Below, piece by piece: positions 6,289-50,401 of a stretch of DNA of 64,000 nucleotides; the stretch's first letter is position 1; each line of letters begins with the position of its first letter. This DNA is from Escherichia coli O157:H7 (GTDB lineage: Bacteria; Pseudomonadota; Gammaproteobacteria; Enterobacterales; Enterobacteriaceae). A program made the position numbers and the translations under genes. The notes beneath the pieces are model-generated. The model was not told where the DNA came from. It did not search any database and saw only the letters and a list, made by a program, of their open reading frames with translations. The stretch lies in assembly GCF_013167455.1 (NCBI RefSeq), contig NZ_CP038328.1. One strand, given 5' to 3'.

Positions 6289-6298
6289 TCAGGTGCCT

Positions 6299-6910
6299 CT
6301 ACTTACGTTGATCATCTACCGTGACGCCTTGCGGCGGGGTGAAGGTAAATTTCGCTGCATCCACAGCCCCATTTTGCTGGGATTTCAGTTGATAACTGCT
6401 GCGCTGATCGTCCTGCTCCACCGCGCTAAACTGATGGATTGTGCCATCACGTCCCACGTTAATGGTGAACTGCTTCAGATTGCCATTGCTGGCTTTCGGC
6501 GTCAGGACAAAGTCATCGCCATTCTGTTTGATATTGTACTGCTGCCAGTCGCTGGACTGGTTGCGGGCAATCAGCATAAACGGCGTATTACCGGTGGCAT
6601 CTTTCAGCCAGGTTGCCGTAGCTTGCTCAACGAACGGGTTATAGAACCACAGTGTTTTACCGTCAGAAACCAGAATGCTTTCATCAGGTTGTGTCATATG
6701 CCAGTTGAATAAGTTTGGACGTTTCACCCACAGATCGCCCTGACCTTCCTGCACCGCCGCGCCGCTACCGTCAGTCACTTTTTGTGTGAAGCTGGCGTGG
6801 AAGCTGCTGACTTTATCCAGGCGGCTTTTCAGATCGCTTGCGGCATCAGCCCAAACGCTGCTTGCTACTAAGCTTGAGAGTAATGCACAGGTGATGGCAA
6901 TTTTTTTCAT
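6299..6910 (-). CDS. lolA: Outer-membrane lipoprotein carrier protein LolA
   Basis: [25 protein letters not shown]... with signal peptide; start set at the second Met to give the recalled 203-aa product; the upstream Met at 6913 is also possible. Confidence 0.92.
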
Positions 6911-7022
6911 CATTATTCCTCAAATTACGTCACTCCCGATCGGGAGTTCCCTCTACTCTCTATTCCAGGCTAATAATCAGCTTGAGGAAAGAAGAAAATA
7001 CTGAATTTTCAGTTGATAGAGT

Positions 7023-7054
7023 GCCGGATGCGACGCTACCGCGCCTTATCCGGC
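7023..7054. repeat. REP (repetitive extragenic palindromic) element between ftsK and lolA
   Basis: gccggatgcgacgctaccgcgccttatccggc resembles the canonical E. coli REP (GCCGGATGCGGCG...CGCCTTATCCGGCCTAC). Confidence 0.7.
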
Positions 7055-7064
7055 AATGCATTAA

Positions 7065-10000
7065 TTAGTCAAACGGCGGTGGGGACAGCACTTCACGATT
7101 ACCGTTGTGCCCCTGTTCGCTGACAATCCCCTGCGCTTCCATCTGTTCGATAATACGCGCTGCACGGTTATAACCAATGCGGAACTGACGTTGTACGCCA
7201 GAAATTGACGCTTTGCGTTTTTCAGTGACAAACTGCACCGCCTGATCGAACAACGGATCCAGTTCTTCAGCGCCATCGAAACCACCCGCACCACCTTCGC
7301 TTTCGCTGTCGGAGGTGATGCCATCAACATACTGTGGGCGACCACGCGCTTTCCAGTCCTGCACCACGGCATGAACTTCCTGATCGCGAACAAAAGCACC
7401 ATGGACACGTACCGGCAACGTGGAGTTCGGCCCAGAGTAGAGCATATCCCCCATACCCAGCAGTGATTCCGCGCCAGCCTGATCAAGAATGGTACGTGAG
7501 TCAATCTTACTGGATACGGTAAAGGCGATACGGGTCGGAATATTCGCTTTAATCAGACCAGTAATAACATCAACCGATGGACGCTGAGTTGCCAGTACGA
7601 GGTGGATACCCGCGGCACGGGCTTTTTGCGCCAGACGTGCTATCAGCTCTTCCACTTTTTTACCTACTGTCATCATCAGGTCGGCAAATTCGTCCACCAA
7701 CACCACAATGTATGGTTCTTTTTTCAGCACCGGATGCTGGGCATCCATACTGTCACCCGGCTTCCAGTACGGGTCTGGAATCGGACGCATCATGCGATCG
7801 GCTTCAGCAATTTTTTCGTTATAACCCGCCAGATTACGCACACCCAGCGCAGACATCAGTTTATAACGACGCTCCATCTCGTTAACACACCAGCGCAGCG
7901 CGTTGGCGGCATCTTTCATATCAGTAACGACTTCCGTTAACAGGTGCGGAATGCCTTCATACACCGAAAGCTCCAGCATTTTCGGGTCGATCATGATGAA
8001 ACGCACATCTTCTGGCTGTGCTTTATAAAGCATGCTCAGGATCATCGCGTTCACACCGACAGATTTACCGGAACCGGTAGTCCCCGCAACTAACAAGTGC
8101 GGCATTTTCGCCAGATCGGCAACCACCGGCTCACCGGCGATATCTTTACCCAGCACCACGGTTAATGGCGATGGATTATCGCGGAATTTGGCGTTATCCA
8201 ATACTTCGCGCAGATAAACGGTTTGTCGTTTTTTATTCGGTAACTCCAGACCTACATAGGGTTTGCCAGGAATAACTTCAACGACACGCACCGCCACCGT
8301 CGAAAGTGAACGGGCAAGGTCCCGTGACAAGTTAGAAATGCGCGCCGCTTTTACGCCCGGTGCCAGGTTAAGTTCAAAGCGAGTGATAACCGGCCCCGGA
8401 GAGTAATTGACGACATCGGCTTTAATACGGAAATCAGCCAGACGCGCTTCCACCAGGCGAGCCATTTGTTCAAGCGCAAAGGTATCTACCGGCTCCACTT
8501 CGCTCGGCGGCGGTGTCAGCAAATCCAGAGAAGGCAGCGGCGTCGTCGGTTTATGCAACGGACGGCTGTCGCCATTACGCATCAACAGCGGATGAAGCAG
8601 AGTATCCTGCGGCTGTGGCGCAACTGGCTGTTGTGGCTGCTGATACTGCGGCTGCGGTGCAACCGGTTGTTGCGGCTGTTGATACTGCGGCTGCGGCGCA
8701 ACTGGTTGTTGCGGCTGCTGATATTGCTGCTGTGGCGCAACCGGTTGTTGCGGCTGCTGATATTGTGGCTGCGGCGCAACCTGCTGTTGTGGCTGCTGAT
8801 ACTGCGGCTGTGGCGCAACCGGCTGTTGTGGCTGCTGATACTGCTGCTGCGGTGCAACCGGTTGTTGCGGCTGCTGTACAGGTTCAACAATTGGCGTAAA
8901 CAGCGGTTCGTGTGGACCATCATCCAGCAACGCTTTCATTGGCGAAAATTCAAAATCATCCAGCGAGAACGGATTCGCCCCAGCCGGTTGTTCGCCGGAA
9001 TAACGTTGTTGTTGAGTTTGCGCAAACTGACGAGCCAGTTCAGCCTCTGCCGCAGCATCTGCATCTTCTGCATTTACGGGCACATCATGTTGATACTGTT
9101 CGCCATAGCGTTGCTGCTGTGTCTGGGCGAACTGACGTGCCAGTTCATCCTGCTGCATCGCATCGATTTCATCATCGTTGTACTGATCGCCAGAATCGTA
9201 CTGATTGCGCTGGGCTTCACGGGCTTTTTCTTCCGCCGCACGCTGTGAGGGCAGCTTAATACCGTAAGACGCCAATTCACGACGAGTTGGCACGCGGATA
9301 CGTTTCGGTCGTGGCAACTGCGGGCCAATCCCCTCTTTGACCTGCGGACGCGGTCCACCGCTATTTGCCAGACTGAAGACTGGCGCGGCAACGGTTGCGG
9401 CAGCCCCCGTCGCCAGTGTCGCTTTTTTCACGCCAGATGCCAGCGGAGAAACAGCGGCAGCGGCTTCTACTGGAGGTACTGCTGCAACAGAAGGTGCTTT
9501 CAGCGAAGATTTGATCGGTTCTGGTTCTTTAACCGGTTCTGGAATCGGTTGATACCAGGCCGCAAGTTGTTCACGTTCACGGGCTCGCTTCTCTTCAACT
9601 TCTTCAAAGTAGTAAAGCGGCGGACGCGCGGGTTTTGTCTCTTCTACAACGGGTTCAGGCTCCACAACAGGCTGCTGTTCAACGGGTTGCGGCTGTTGGT
9701 ACAACGGCTCCTGAGCGGCTGGCTGCTGATAAGTTTGCTCAGTCTGGTATGTAGACTGTGGAGCAAAAGTGGATTGCTGCTCTTCGGCTTGCCAGGCGTT
9801 ACCTGCCACCGGTTGTTCTGGCGCAGGGGCATAATACGGCTGTTGCGCAGGTTGTTCAGCTGCAGGTGCATAATACGGCTGCTGCGGCTGTACTGGTTGT
9901 TGCAGCGGCTCATTATATTGCACTGCAGGCTGCGCATATTGTGACTGCTGTGGGTAACCTTCCGGTGCAGGAGCAATAACCGGCTCTCCCGTTTGTGGAC

Positions 10001-46956: not shown

Positions 46957-46984
46957 GCCGGAGTGGGCGAACACCCACTCCGGC
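46957..46984. terminator. Perfect 11-bp GC-rich hairpin between convergent artJ and the accessory sulfatase gene (putative bidirectional terminator)
   Basis: GCCGGAGTGGG-cgaaca-CCCACTCCGGC; lies in the 50-bp gap between the two stop codons; no strong U-run on either side. Confidence 0.45.
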
Positions 46985-46996
46985 AAAATCACTTCT

Positions 46997-48478
46997 CTAC
47001 GCTAATCCCAGGCGCTGAAACTGCTCTGGCGGCGCATCATTATCTTTCATCAACTGAATCAGCAACGCGATCATCCGGGACTCGATCACATCATCATGAA
47101 TCGGATGTAGCTGCTGCGGATCGTTTTGCAGATCAAACAGCAAATGACCAAACTGATTCAACCCCTTATATTTTTCCTGTGCCGGGATGCGTAATACCTG
47201 TAACCCTTTGGTAAAACGAAACGGTGGGGCCAGCGATAAAGCCCGCATCTCATCCACCGGATAGCGGCTGTTCATTTTGCAGGACATCAACGTGTAGTTG
47301 GCAATATCATCCTCACGCCCCGGCAGCGCTGCACGCATATACACATAACGCCCATCAGTTACGTTAGCATGACCACTGAAAACACCAAACATCGCCGAGC
47401 TGCGTACTGGTTCATCGTGACTGACCGTTTTCGCCAGCGGTTGCCCCTGCACATCGGGCGGCACTGGCTGTTGAAAAAAGTCATACAACGTTGGCGCCCA
47501 GTCGATCATTTGTACCAGTGCCTGTCGCCGCTCTCCTTTTACACCACTGCGCGGGTTCCAGATAAACAACGGATTATTGGCAACTTCGTTGTAATAAGGC
47601 ATCTGGTTTTTCGCCCACCAGCCATGCTCACCGAGTAAAAAGCCGTGGTCAGTGCCGACAATCAGCATGGTATCTCGCCACAGATCGTGCTCATCCATCA
47701 GGTCGAGAATGCGCCCCAGGTTGCGATCGCACATCGACACCAGCGAACGATACCGGCAACGGATGTGCTCCACGGCCTCGTCGCTTTCCTGCACCCGGCC
47801 ACGCGGCCAGTCATAATGCGGTCCATCCCAGTTATCTTCATACAAGGAAAGATACTCTTCCGTTGTGTGAAACGGCTCGTGCGGATCAAACGTTTCGATC
47901 TGCAATAACCAGTTATCTTCCGCGTGATTTTTGTGGATAAAGGCACAGCCTGCATCAAACACTTTAGTTTGTGGAAAATCCGCTTCCTGCTGAATATATT
48001 CCCGGTTTGCCCAGTCATGGCGCCACAGACCAGAAACACCGCCACCGGTCTGCTTTTGCGGCACCCGTAGCACCTCGGGAATAGGCGGTTGCGCAACGCT
48101 TGCATGCCAGTGATCGCCTTCCTGTCCGCGCACAATCTCCCACGAACTGTAGCGATTATGATAATTCCCGCCGCCATCTTCCCAGTAATGCAAATGATCG
48201 CTTATCAGGTGGGTATAGATCCCCGCCTTTTTAAGCAGCTCCGGCATGGAATCGTCAAACGGTTCTAACGGCCCCCACTCCCGATGCAGGAAGTTACATC
48301 GCCCGGTATGCAACTCCCGCCGGGCAGGCATACACGGCATACTGCCGACGTAACTGTTTTCAAAGGTGGCGGCATGAGCCGCCAGACGTTGGAAATTAGG
48401 CGCTTTGGTTAACGCATCGCCATAAGGTGGCAGATAACGTTTATTCAGACTATCGAACAGCAGAATAATCGCTCTCAT
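46997..48478 (-). CDS. Accessory Cys-type sulfatase-family protein (alkaline-phosphatase superfamily), predicted cytoplasmic
   Basis: 493-aa ORF; sulfatase signature C49-M-P-A-R53 followed by RELHTGRC; no N-terminal signal peptide; last gene of a three-gene minus-strand cluster. Confidence 0.85.
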   Translation of the reverse strand: MRAIILLFDSLNKRYLPPYGDALTKAPNFQRLAAHAATFENSYVGSMPCMPARRELHTGRCNFLHREWGPLEPFDDSMPELLKKAGIYTHLISDHLHYWEDGGGNYHNRYSSWEIVRGQEGDHWHASVAQPPIPEVLRVPQKQTGGGVSGLWRHDWANREYIQQEADFPQTKVFDAGCAFIHKNHAEDNWLLQIETFDPHEPFHTTEEYLSLYEDNWDGPHYDWPRGRVQESDEAVEHIRCRYRSLVSMCDRNLGRILDLMDEHDLWRDTMLIVGTDHGFLLGEHGWWAKNQMPYYNEVANNPLFIWNPRSGVKGERRQALVQMIDWAPTLYDFFQQPVPPDVQGQPLAKTVSHDEPVRSSAMFGVFSGHANVTDGRYVYMRAALPGREDDIANYTLMSCKMNSRYPVDEMRALSLAPPFRFTKGLQVLRIPAQEKYKGLNQFGHLLFDLQNDPQQLHPIHDDVIESRMIALLIQLMKDNDAPPEQFQRLGLA

Positions 48479-48831: not shown

Positions 48832-50175
48832 TTAACCCGCGTAAGGACCAAGATGGAATGTTGCAGCGATAAATTTCAGAACTTCACAAATAGCAGGCCA
48901 TACGGTTGCCCAGTCAAATATTCCTGTCCAGCCGACGCCATTTTCAGCAAGCCCGGTTAACGGAATAGCCCACACCGTACCGAAGGTCTGAATAATACCC
49001 AGCAAGAACGTACAGATAATTACGGAACGGTATCCGCCCATGCGGTTTGCTAATACGCCAATTGGACCGCCAGAGAAAAACAGAGGTACAAAGCCAGGCA
49101 ATACCATAATTGGGCTGTGAACCAGTAATAAGATCCCCATCGAAAAAATGGTGCCAAAAGTACAGAAGACGAAGCCTAACGTTGCGGCATTGGGTGAAAA
49201 AGGTAACAGCGCTGCAACATCGACAGCAGGAATAGCGTTAGGAATAAAGCGATCTTGCCAGCCTTTAAACGAACCGTTAATTTCGCCCACCATCATGCGC
49301 ACACCCTGCAGCAGAATGACCATATACATGGAGAACTGTAAGCCAAGGTTGATGATATAGATGTACCAGGGCTTGCCTTTCGCCATTAACTGGACATTAT
49401 CGATACCCGTTGATAGCAAGAAACCACCGACAAACAGCGTCATCACAATGGCGATAGCCGTTACGTTATGGTTAAAAATCGCCAGCCACCCGGGAAGTTT
49501 CAGGTTTTCAGCATCGTGCTTTTCAGGGTCACCAAATTTATGGGCGAATTTGGAGAAAAACCACAATCCCAACATCTGGTTATGAGCAATGGTAAAACCG
49601 GCATCTTTGGTAACTTTGGCAATGGGCTTAACAATGAGCGTGGTGGAGAACGCCCAGAATACACCCGTTAATATTCCGGCAATAATAATGGATGTAGTCC
49701 AGCTAAAACCCAGCCAAAAGACAATCAACCATAATACCGCCTGAGAATGTGAAACACCGGTATTCCCTGTCAAAAATATCCCTTTGGCACCAGTATACCG
49801 ACCAAATAATACCAGCAGCAGGTTGGTAAAAAACGCCAGTACAAATACATACCCGACATAACCAAAATTATCCCCCAATGCAATTTGCGTTGCCGCTTTC
49901 ATTGCGTAGGAATCCATTAAATATCCGTGAACACCATAGGCTTTACTTACGGCTTCTGCTACCGGTTTAAATGTTGCGGAAAACTGGAAACCACCAAATA
50001 ACACCATCATTAATCCCACCATGGCGCTGACCATGCCGGTAATAATTTTTATTGGCGATTTCTTATCAAGGGCATAACCAATACCCACCAGCAAACCAAT
50101 TAAAATTGCCGGTTCAGTTAAAAACGTTTGAATAACATCTATGAATTTGGCAAACATCGTCGGAACGCCCTCCAT
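48832..50175 (-). CDS. Accessory PTS EIIC permease, L-ascorbate (UlaA/SgaT)-like family
   Basis: 447-aa polytopic membrane ORF; N-terminal third resembles recalled UlaA (e.g. ...FKPVAEAVSKAYGVHGYLMDSYAMKA... versus UlaA ...[27 protein letters not shown]...); an alternative start at the Met 6 codons downstream has a better GGAGG Shine-Dalgarno. Confidence 0.85.
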   Translation of the reverse strand: MEGVPTMFAKFIDVIQTFLTEPAILIGLLVGIGYALDKKSPIKIITGMVSAMVGLMMVLFGGFQFSATFKPVAEAVSKAYGVHGYLMDSYAMKAATQIALGDNFGYVGYVFVLAFFTNLLLVLFGRYTGAKGIFLTGNTGVSHSQAVLWLIVFWLGFSWTTSIIIAGILTGVFWAFSTTLIVKPIAKVTKDAGFTIAHNQMLGLWFFSKFAHKFGDPEKHDAENLKLPGWLAIFNHNVTAIAIVMTLFVGGFLLSTGIDNVQLMAKGKPWYIYIINLGLQFSMYMVILLQGVRMMVGEINGSFKGWQDRFIPNAIPAVDVAALLPFSPNAATLGFVFCTFGTIFSMGILLLVHSPIMVLPGFVPLFFSGGPIGVLANRMGGYRSVIICTFLLGIIQTFGTVWAIPLTGLAENGVGWTGIFDWATVWPAICEVLKFIAATFHLGPYAG

Positions 50176-50365
50176 ACGCGTACATTTCCGTTGTCAATGC
50201 ATGAACCTTCTGCTGACGTTAATAATGTCTCAGGAAATTTTGTGTTTCGCTAAGCAATGCCTCTGTATGTATTCGGTAAGTGCACTGTAGTAATCAAAAC
50301 AGTTCAATTAAAGATCTTATTTGATTATTTGTGATTTGATTTGCAAAAATAGAGCAATATATAAC

Positions 50366-50401
50366 CGTGATCGATCGGTTATTATTAATCGATCGATCAC
50401 G
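50366..50401. promoter_or_regulatory. Perfect 12-bp inverted repeat with 12-nt AT spacer upstream of the accessory PTS cluster (candidate operator or RNA structure)
   Basis: CGTGATCGATCG-gttattattaat-CGATCGATCACG, about 190-225 nt upstream of the EIIC start and 54-89 nt downstream of the rlmC stop. Confidence 0.35.

Follow-up and report, generated by a model that had tools for sequence, protein, structure and literature searches.

The sequence analyzed here, referred to as the window, is a stretch of 64,000 nucleotides from the Escherichia coli O157:H7 contig NZ_CP038328.1, and it is 100% identical to many O157 chromosomes. The gap between its convergent genes rlmC and artJ is filled by three minus-strand genes, which encode, in order, enzyme IIC (EIIC) and enzyme IIB (EIIB) of a phosphotransferase system (PTS) and a sulfatase homologue (Table 1). 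An earlier note on this DNA dealt with the sulfatase gene by itself. Its description of the gene holds, but the gene is the last member of a conserved IIC-IIB-sulfatase cassette, and this context, which that note left aside, indicates what the enzyme may do.

Table 1. Features of the cassette and its borders, with positions counted from the first letter of the window.
Feature	Position	Strand	Basis or remark
Sulfatase homologue, S1 (formylglycine-type), predicted cytoplasmic, cassette gene 3	46997..48478	(-)	ORF, translation, Pfam, AF2 model
Cys49 codon, predicted formylglycine precursor in C-M-P-A-R	48332..48334	(-)	coordinate arithmetic (48478 - 3 × 48), alignment
PTS EIIB, ascorbate/galactitol type, 106 aa	48490..48810	(-)	phospho-accepting Cys in ILFVCGYGVGSS
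PTS EIIC, L-ascorbate (SgaT/UlaA) family, 447 aa	48832..50175	(-)	NCBIfam NF009550
Conserved promoter/operator block upstream of the IIC gene, candidate UlaR operator	50283..50335	(-)	alignment, PulaA comparison
GC-rich hairpin where the artJ and sulfatase genes converge	46957..46984	.	read from sequence
Perfect 12-bp inverted repeat, CGTGATCGATCG-N12-CGATCGATCACG, GATC-rich	50366..50401	.	sequence, terminator-like scan

The sulfatase open reading frame (ORF) begins with ATG and encodes 493 amino acids, with the sequence that the earlier note quoted. That note had recognized a Cys-type sulfatase carrying the signature C49-M-P-A-R53 directly followed by R54-E-L-H-T-G-R-C61, and the ORF, Pfam and alignments all agree with it, down to the position of the Cys codon. 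Pfam Sulfatase (PF00884) matches residues 4-334 with an E value of 6e-28, and a SGSH_C extension is found in addition. In NCBIfam, the protein has only sub-threshold matches (arylsulfatase, choline sulfatase and PehA) and is therefore a member of no curated equivalog. The absence of a signal peptide, also claimed before, was borne out. Because the start taken is the first start codon to follow a stop, and the IIB stop codon lies 11 nt upstream of it, the ORF cannot be extended in that direction; the first beta strand of solved sulfatases, with its metal-binding Asp, aligns to residues 1-9; and the start position (MKAI..FDSLN) is identical in 20 of 20 aligned relatives. With the ORF start, the metal-binding Asp at residue 9 and these relatives considered together, no signal peptide is present and there is no room for one. 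The sulfatase is consequently predicted to be cytoplasmic. This location had been presented as an oddity of one gene, but to judge from the common start it is the rule across the whole family.

Alignment with characterized sulfatases and phosphonate monoester hydrolases (PMHs), the check that the earlier note had proposed, places C49 on the catalytic position: C49-M-P-A-R53 aligns with the Cys/formylglycine (FGly) motif of choline sulfatase (6fny, SSPLCAPAR) and of the Silicibacter arylsulfatase SpAS2 (4upl, SPICGSSR). A misaligned CxPxR motif is ruled out by the same two alignments. The C-M-P-A-R signature is invariant in the 20 aligned relatives, which come from Enterobacteriaceae and Firmicutes, and C-[MIV]-P-[AC]-R is present in 59 of 62 family loci. 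Also invariant among the 20 are D9, H200, D277-H278 and K290. The metal ligands would be D9, in an FDSLN motif that aligns with FDQL and TDDH, and D277-H278 in GTDHGF. Ser10 stands where the usual "DD" pair has its second Asp, and FDSLN resembles the FDQL of SpAS1/2. H200 (FDPHEPF) aligns with PHWPY of 4upi and 4upl, and K290 aligns with the distal Lys of 7p24 and 5g2v. One element departs from this pattern. The Lys of the "GKxH" Lys-His pair, which binds sulfate and the FGly hydrate, was found neither in the sulfatase nor in any of the 20 relatives. D94 stands in its column, where other possible alignments put a gap or a His; a His is present (H95 or H97), and the replacement sits in a family-invariant S-D94-H-L-H-Y-W-E-D-G-G motif. 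As aligned, the sulfatase signature is intact, but the full catalytic set is not the textbook one.

The AlphaFold2 (AF2) model of the protein has an S1 sulfatase fold, with a predicted template modeling score (pTM) of 0.85 and a mean predicted local distance difference test score (pLDDT) of 76. It was built from an alignment of 20 sequences only, 61-86% identical to the query; we used the fold and did not interpret loop geometry. A Foldseek search of the PDB with this model returned S1 sulfatases at a probability of 1.00 and a TM score of about 0.6, with 1fsu as the best match. All of these are distant relatives at ≤19% identity, and no close characterized enzyme was found among them. In a profile search of the PDB, the SpAS1/SpAS2 group scored best and PMHs followed close behind (4upi, 4upl, 2vqr, 4upk). 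This group of dimeric arylsulfatases and PMHs (RlPMH, SpAS1/2) reaches profile E values of 1e-27 to 1e-22, yet its identity to the query is ≤19%. The nearest solved sulfatases by sequence are the S1_11 GlcNAc-6-sulfatases 7p24 and 5g2v. Predicted fold and signature place the protein in the S1 sulfatase superfamily, with one defining residue lacking.

The two PTS subunits belong with the L-ascorbate transporter of the Ula system. EIIC scores 964 bits against NF009550 ("PTS sugar transporter subunit IIC", cut-off 583) and is 38.5% identical to UlaA; other NF0095xx models of the same name match it too. EIIB has the active-site Cys motif VCGYGVGSS, matches the NCBIfam ascorbate IIB models below their cut-off, and is 28.6% identical to E. 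coli UlaB. Orthologues of the two proteins carry PF03611 (EIIC-GAT) and PF02302 (PTS_IIB), respectively. PMC6048161 lists the residues with which UlaA binds vitamin C in its crystal structures, and we compared 15 UlaA sites with the cassette EIICs. Seven (Y87, H194, D314, F362, R288, G58 and G286) are retained without variation. Five others are replaced in 13 of 13 cassette IICs: H135 by N (Q in one), I136 by T/A/S, Q139 by S/A, Q195 by N and S59 by G. The cassette EIIC thus reads as a UlaA scaffold in which five side chains have been exchanged, mostly for smaller ones, and smaller pocket residues are expected if the ligand carries an extra group. The start of EIIC is probably the second ATG, at 50157, since the annotated start (ATG GAG GGC, 50157..50175) resembles a Shine-Dalgarno sequence, GGAGG, ahead of it; the GGAGG and the downstream ATG are kept in Silvania, Leclercia and Yokenella. 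No cognate enzyme IIA (EIIA) was found in the window or in any enterobacterial locus.

Relatives in other bacteria connect the cassette with ascorbate catabolism. A scan of a single genome from each species yielded 63 loci, and in 41 of them the sulfatase shares 60% identity or more with its E. coli counterpart; the neighborhood counts that follow refer to genes within 10 kb of the sulfatase in these 41 loci, each from a different species. The family is very large and unusually conserved, and the E. coli sulfatase is 62-68% identical to homologues in Clostridia, Lachnospiraceae and Bacilli. In 35 of the 41 species the gene immediately before the sulfatase gene, and co-directional with it, encodes EIIB; EIIC is present in 36, and a DeoR-type regulator in 23. 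EIIA is present or fused in 15, and in two protein clusters from metagenomic Firmicutes (P0044 and P0082; L002 8001..9908) an EIIA_2 domain is fused to the C terminus of the sulfatase itself. At least one L-ascorbate catabolic gene (UlaG/D/E/F) occurs in 10 loci, and UlaG in 8. The ula identities are supported by NCBIfam, with UlaG at 653-663 bits (cut-off 306) and the UlaD, UlaE and UlaF models above their cut-offs.

In Neobacillus niacini a single operon reads IIA-IIC-IIB-sulfatase-UlaG-UlaD-UlaE-UlaF and is followed by a stretch resembling an anaerobic sulfatase-maturating enzyme (anSME; split tblastn matches). Bacillus sp. SD088 has IIC-IIB-sulfatase divergent from DeoR-IIA-UlaG-UlaD-UlaE-UlaF, and in a Clostridium sp. 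(L040) a DeoR gene is followed by UlaG-IIA-IIC-IIB-sulfatase-x-UlaF-UlaE. Beyond the divergent regulator gene of this Clostridium operon come a transketolase and a transaldolase-family gene. UlaG, UlaE and UlaF also adjoin the cassette in Olsenella and in an Oscillospiraceae genome. Because the gene orders differ between lineages, the linkage with ula genes either arose or was kept independently. The EIIC of the ula-linked loci is of the NF009550 type, as in E. coli, and in N. niacini, Bacillus sp. SD088 and Clostridium sp. L040 it is the sole ascorbate-family transporter in the retrieved locus. A transporter of plain ascorbate needs no sulfatase, so sulfated ascorbate is the simplest reading of these operons. 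A 2011 survey of ula regulons had already recorded a sulfatase "inserted" in the ula regulon of Sebaldella and left it uninterpreted (PMC3219644).

The unnamed member of the L040 operon (6290..7327), directly after the sulfatase gene, is a 345-aa protein without an NCBIfam match; this operon has no recognizable UlaD, and the protein may be a non-homologous replacement for it. A more distant clade at 46-57% identity (L045-L067, including Paenibacillus, Streptomyces, Microbacterium, Brachyspira and marine SAR86) has no PTS nearby, and several of its genes stand among other sulfatase genes. This clade probably acts on a different substrate, and its lack of a PTS means that the PTS link defines the sub-clade to which the E. 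coli sulfatase belongs.

The promoter region of the E. coli cassette also resembles that of ulaA. The 279 bp upstream of the EIIC gene are cassette-specific and hold a block that is conserved in six enterobacterial genomes from five genera. Against the ulaA promoter of K-12 (PulaA), the core of this block (50283-50335) gives 34 matches in 53 ungapped positions; in 200 dinucleotide shuffles the count averaged 28.9 and never exceeded 33. PulaA matches at 27 of the 30 invariant columns (hypergeometric p = 8.7e-6). The half-site TKTGATTA is not significantly enriched over the whole window (9 found, 4.6 expected); the core of the promoter is flanked by two of them. The inducer of UlaR is L-ascorbate-6-phosphate (PMC5934670), and the resemblance is suggestive of a cassette under UlaR control whose inducer would be the predicted product of the sulfatase.

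Conversion of Cys49 to formylglycine requires a maturase, and the earlier note had pointed out that no such gene lies nearby. This is correct for the window, where tblastn with E. coli AslB gave no match at E<1e-4 over the 64 kb (no reference for formylglycine-generating enzyme, FGE, was searched), and for the annotation of a 100%-identical O157 genome, which lists no maturase within 9 kb on either side. It does describe the enterobacterial copy, but not the clade: an AslB-like anSME lies within 10 kb of the sulfatase in 11 of the 41 species, mostly directly beside the cassette. The lack of a neighboring maturase in E. coli is a local loss, and the anSMEs beside the same cassette elsewhere argue that Cys49 is meant to become formylglycine. 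A candidate maturation enzyme encoded elsewhere, which the note had suggested looking for genome-wide, is available in aslB, present in 5425 of 5426 complete E. coli genomes. In PMC6189696, which cites Benjdia et al. 2007, E. coli is reported to convert Cys, not Ser, in heterologous sulfatases by a machinery that is not identified there. Maturation of the O157 sulfatase would be carried out by an AslB/YdeM-type anSME or by this Cys-type system of E. coli.

Taken together, a slight balance of probability favors the view that the three genes form a cassette for the uptake and desulfation of L-ascorbate 2-sulfate, with the sulfatase as its cytoplasmic enzyme, and that this cassette feeds the Ula pathway. 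EIIC and EIIB, as members of the L-ascorbate PTS family, would import a sulfated ascorbate, most likely L-ascorbate 2-sulfate, and phosphorylate it at C6. A cytoplasmic maturase whose gene lies elsewhere would turn Cys49 into formylglycine, and the matured sulfatase would then remove the 2-sulfate and release sulfate and L-ascorbate-6-phosphate. The latter would serve both as the substrate of UlaG and as the inducer that releases UlaR, with carbon passing through UlaG/D/E/F to xylulose-5-phosphate. Having neither an EIIA nor a regulator of its own, the enterobacterial cassette would depend on UlaC and UlaR; the ula regulon, with ulaC and ulaR, is found in 5425 of 5426 complete E. coli genomes and lies elsewhere than the cassette. 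The sequences themselves establish what the genes are, how the cassette is conserved, the EIIA fusion, the neighboring ula and anSME genes of other species, the part of the UlaA pocket that is kept and the likeness of the promoters; the substrate, the order of the reactions, the use of UlaC and UlaR and the choice of maturase are what we infer from these data. Ascorbate 2-sulfate is a natural, oxidation-resistant ester of ascorbate; reports describe it from the cysts of brine shrimp (PMC6191929) and from metabolomes of mammalian plasma and faeces (PMC11322087, PMC10416789). A search of the literature that left out most subscription journals returned only metabolomics and reviews for ascorbate 2-sulfate in connection with a bacterial sulfatase or PTS, and no paper tying any substrate to this sulfatase family.

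Several observations weigh against this proposal. No ula catabolic gene lies within 10 kb of the sulfatase in 31 of the 41 loci, including all the enterobacterial ones, and in E. coli itself no physical linkage of the cassette to ulaG/D/E/F was found, the ula genes being elsewhere in the genome. In two Clostridium loci (L027 and L031) the sulfatase is near UlaG and UlaF, and tblastn found no PTS IIC or IIB within 10 kb. With the GKxH Lys replaced by D94, the chemistry of the active site may differ from that of classical sulfatases, and the AF2 model drops below a pLDDT of 50 precisely in the active-site loops. The likeness of the promoters is statistical, and the matched 53 nt are a candidate operator by sequence comparison with PulaA. 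Cross-talk with UlaC is an assumption, made for an IIB that is only 29% identical to UlaB.

In L027 (1..11479) and L031 the sulfatase gene follows a GntR regulator, and 6 kb ahead of it are UlaG and UlaF together with genes for an epimerase and a split transketolase. Three upstream ORFs there (182, 164 and 499 aa) have no family match and could encode a non-PTS transporter.

The distribution of the cassette bears on its age. It is present in 566 of 5426 complete E. coli genomes and absent from K-12, where the rlmC-artJ spacer is 198 bp long and holds a palindromic element of the repetitive extragenic palindromic (REP) type (L070 5647..5844) in place of the 3.5-kb cassette of O157. The last codons of rlmC also differ between K-12 and O157. 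Other Escherichia species, Yokenella and the Salmonella enterica subspecies arizonae and diarizonae carry the cassette in the identical slot. The E. coli and Salmonella proteins are 85-86% identical for the sulfatase and 95% for IIC, compared with 88% for RlmC and 90% for ArtJ. The shared slot and this core-like divergence of the proteins indicate an old locus that was lost from most E. coli rather than a recent import. A recent foreign insertion was rejected on the same grounds.

Among the alternatives, the one that survives best is that the substrate is some other sulfated compound, be it a sugar, a sugar acid or a lactone (such as a hexose or uronate sulfate from host or diet), and that the link with ula reflects a shared pentose-phosphate route downstream, not ascorbate itself. 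We consider this unlikely. It would fit the 31 loci without a nearby ula catabolic gene, the carbohydrate sulfatases (S1_11) as nearest solved relatives by sequence, and the existence of ascorbate-family EIICs with unknown substrates, to which the other NF0095xx matches attest; a Streptococcus pneumoniae island, as described in PMC3283741, also pairs a sulfatase with a PTS of another family. Against it, UlaG, a lactonase specific for L-ascorbate-6-phosphate, is the ula gene with the tightest link to the cassette (L022, L026, L040), and the key ascorbate-binding residues kept from UlaA and the resemblance of the promoter to PulaA count against it as well.

We regard it as distinctly improbable that the protein is instead a formylglycine-dependent phosphoester or phosphonate-monoester hydrolase, one that removed, for instance, the 2-phosphate from an ascorbate phosphate. 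In favor of such an activity, SpAS1/SpAS2 and the PMHs are the best profile matches in the PDB, the N-terminal metal motif FDSL is like the FDQL of those enzymes, and the sulfate-binding Lys of GKxH is missing. Identity to the SpAS/PMH enzymes is low, however, and in many species the cassette comes with a dedicated anSME, a type of maturase known to act on sulfatases. In animals, furthermore, it is the sulfate that occurs naturally as the 2-ester of ascorbate. The earlier note had left the substrate class open among sulfate, phosphonate and phosphate esters, and we agree, with the addition that the ula-operon context makes sulfated ascorbate more likely than a phosphonate or phosphate.

That the cassette is a silent or decaying remnant in O157 that no longer works, its EIIA, regulator and maturase lost, would agree with the finding of no EIIA, DeoR regulator or anSME in the Escherichia, Salmonella and Yokenella loci and with the roughly 90% of complete E. 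coli genomes that lack it (K-12 having the REP element instead), but it is very improbable given three intact ORFs conserved like the flanking core genes, invariant catalytic motifs, a promoter block kept across five genera, and ulaC, ulaR and aslB elsewhere in the genome.

The proposed route for ascorbate 2-sulfate can be compared with several known systems. With the E. coli Ula system the cassette shares the PTS family of EIIC and EIIB, part of the ascorbate pocket, a ulaA-like promoter and, in other species, an operon with UlaG/D/E/F. It differs in adding a sulfatase, in the five replaced pocket residues of EIIC, in the separate NCBIfam equivalog to which that EIIC belongs (NF009550, not the UlaA model) and, in enterobacteria, in lacking its own EIIA, regulator and catabolic genes. 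The solved S1 sulfatases (5g2v, 7p24, 6fny, 4upi, 4upl) share the fold, C-x-P-x-R, the metal Asp, the D-H pair, the "PH.P" His and the distal Lys with the O157 protein, but at ≤19% identity and with the GKxH Lys that it has replaced; the O157 enzyme is, in addition, predicted to be cytoplasmic rather than secreted, and, coupled to a PTS, it would receive a substrate that carries a phosphate already. Ascorbate 2-sulfate is known to be hydrolysed by human arylsulfatases A and B. They belong to the same superfamily (1fsu was the top Foldseek match) and would carry out the same 2-sulfate reaction as the one proposed here, but they are lysosomal, of broad specificity, matured by FGE and without transporter coupling, at 19% identity. 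E. coli YidJ, another Cys-type sulfatase homologue without a signal peptide, is presumably also cytoplasmic and without an adjacent maturase; it is distant, however (Bacteroides "YidJ" structures match at E 1e-7), and presumably not linked to a PTS.

A precedent is the accessory island of S. pneumoniae, in which a PTS is paired with a putative intracellular sulfatase for a sulfated carbohydrate. As that island is described in PMC3283741, its PTS is of the Lac/cellobiose family and has no ula link. The idea of a PTS joined to an intracellular sulfatase is therefore already known from this island, whereas bacterial use of ascorbate 2-sulfate appears to be undescribed.

A cytoplasmic Cys-type sulfatase without a neighboring maturase would be a modest observation by itself, but its context makes a specific prediction. 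If the proposal is true, a large, conserved and uncharacterized clade with thousands of sequences in Enterobacteriaceae, Lachnospiraceae, Clostridia and Bacilli gains a testable substrate, and the vitamin C fermentation pathway gets a new entry branch in which a PTS passes a phosphorylated sulfate ester to a cytoplasmic sulfatase. It would also account for an accessory locus of O157, Shigella and Salmonella that is missing from K-12, possibly one for a nutrient of the gut or urine niche. A wider picture, in which doubt still slightly outweighs belief, is that gut and soil bacteria have a dedicated, as yet undescribed route for eating ascorbate 2-sulfate, a metabolite of hosts and other animals, by way of a UlaA-like PTS and a Lys-to-Asp formylglycine sulfatase, that its product both feeds and induces Ula, and that the E. 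coli protein is a native client of the Cys-type conversion system. As a natural E. coli substrate protein, it might then give a handle on the Cys-to-formylglycine machinery that is still unidentified in PMC6189696.

The borders of the cassette carry two further elements. The GC-rich hairpin on the artJ side is likely a bidirectional terminator, as read from its sequence. On the other side, the perfect inverted repeat contains four GATC (Dam) sites and lies between the rlmC stop codon and the cassette promoter. In the alignment of six promoters it is kept in E. coli and Salmonella only, and the terminator-like scan flags it only on the strand opposite rlmC; it could be the rlmC terminator or a methylation-sensitive site. 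Elsewhere in the window, the minus strand at 39900..41699 has a single open frame for a 599-aa pentapeptide-repeat protein. The annotation of a 100%-identical O157 genome treats this stretch as a pseudogene with a frameshift, and the ORF is presumably not part of the K-12 gene order. The locus tag ECs0946 corresponds to artI.

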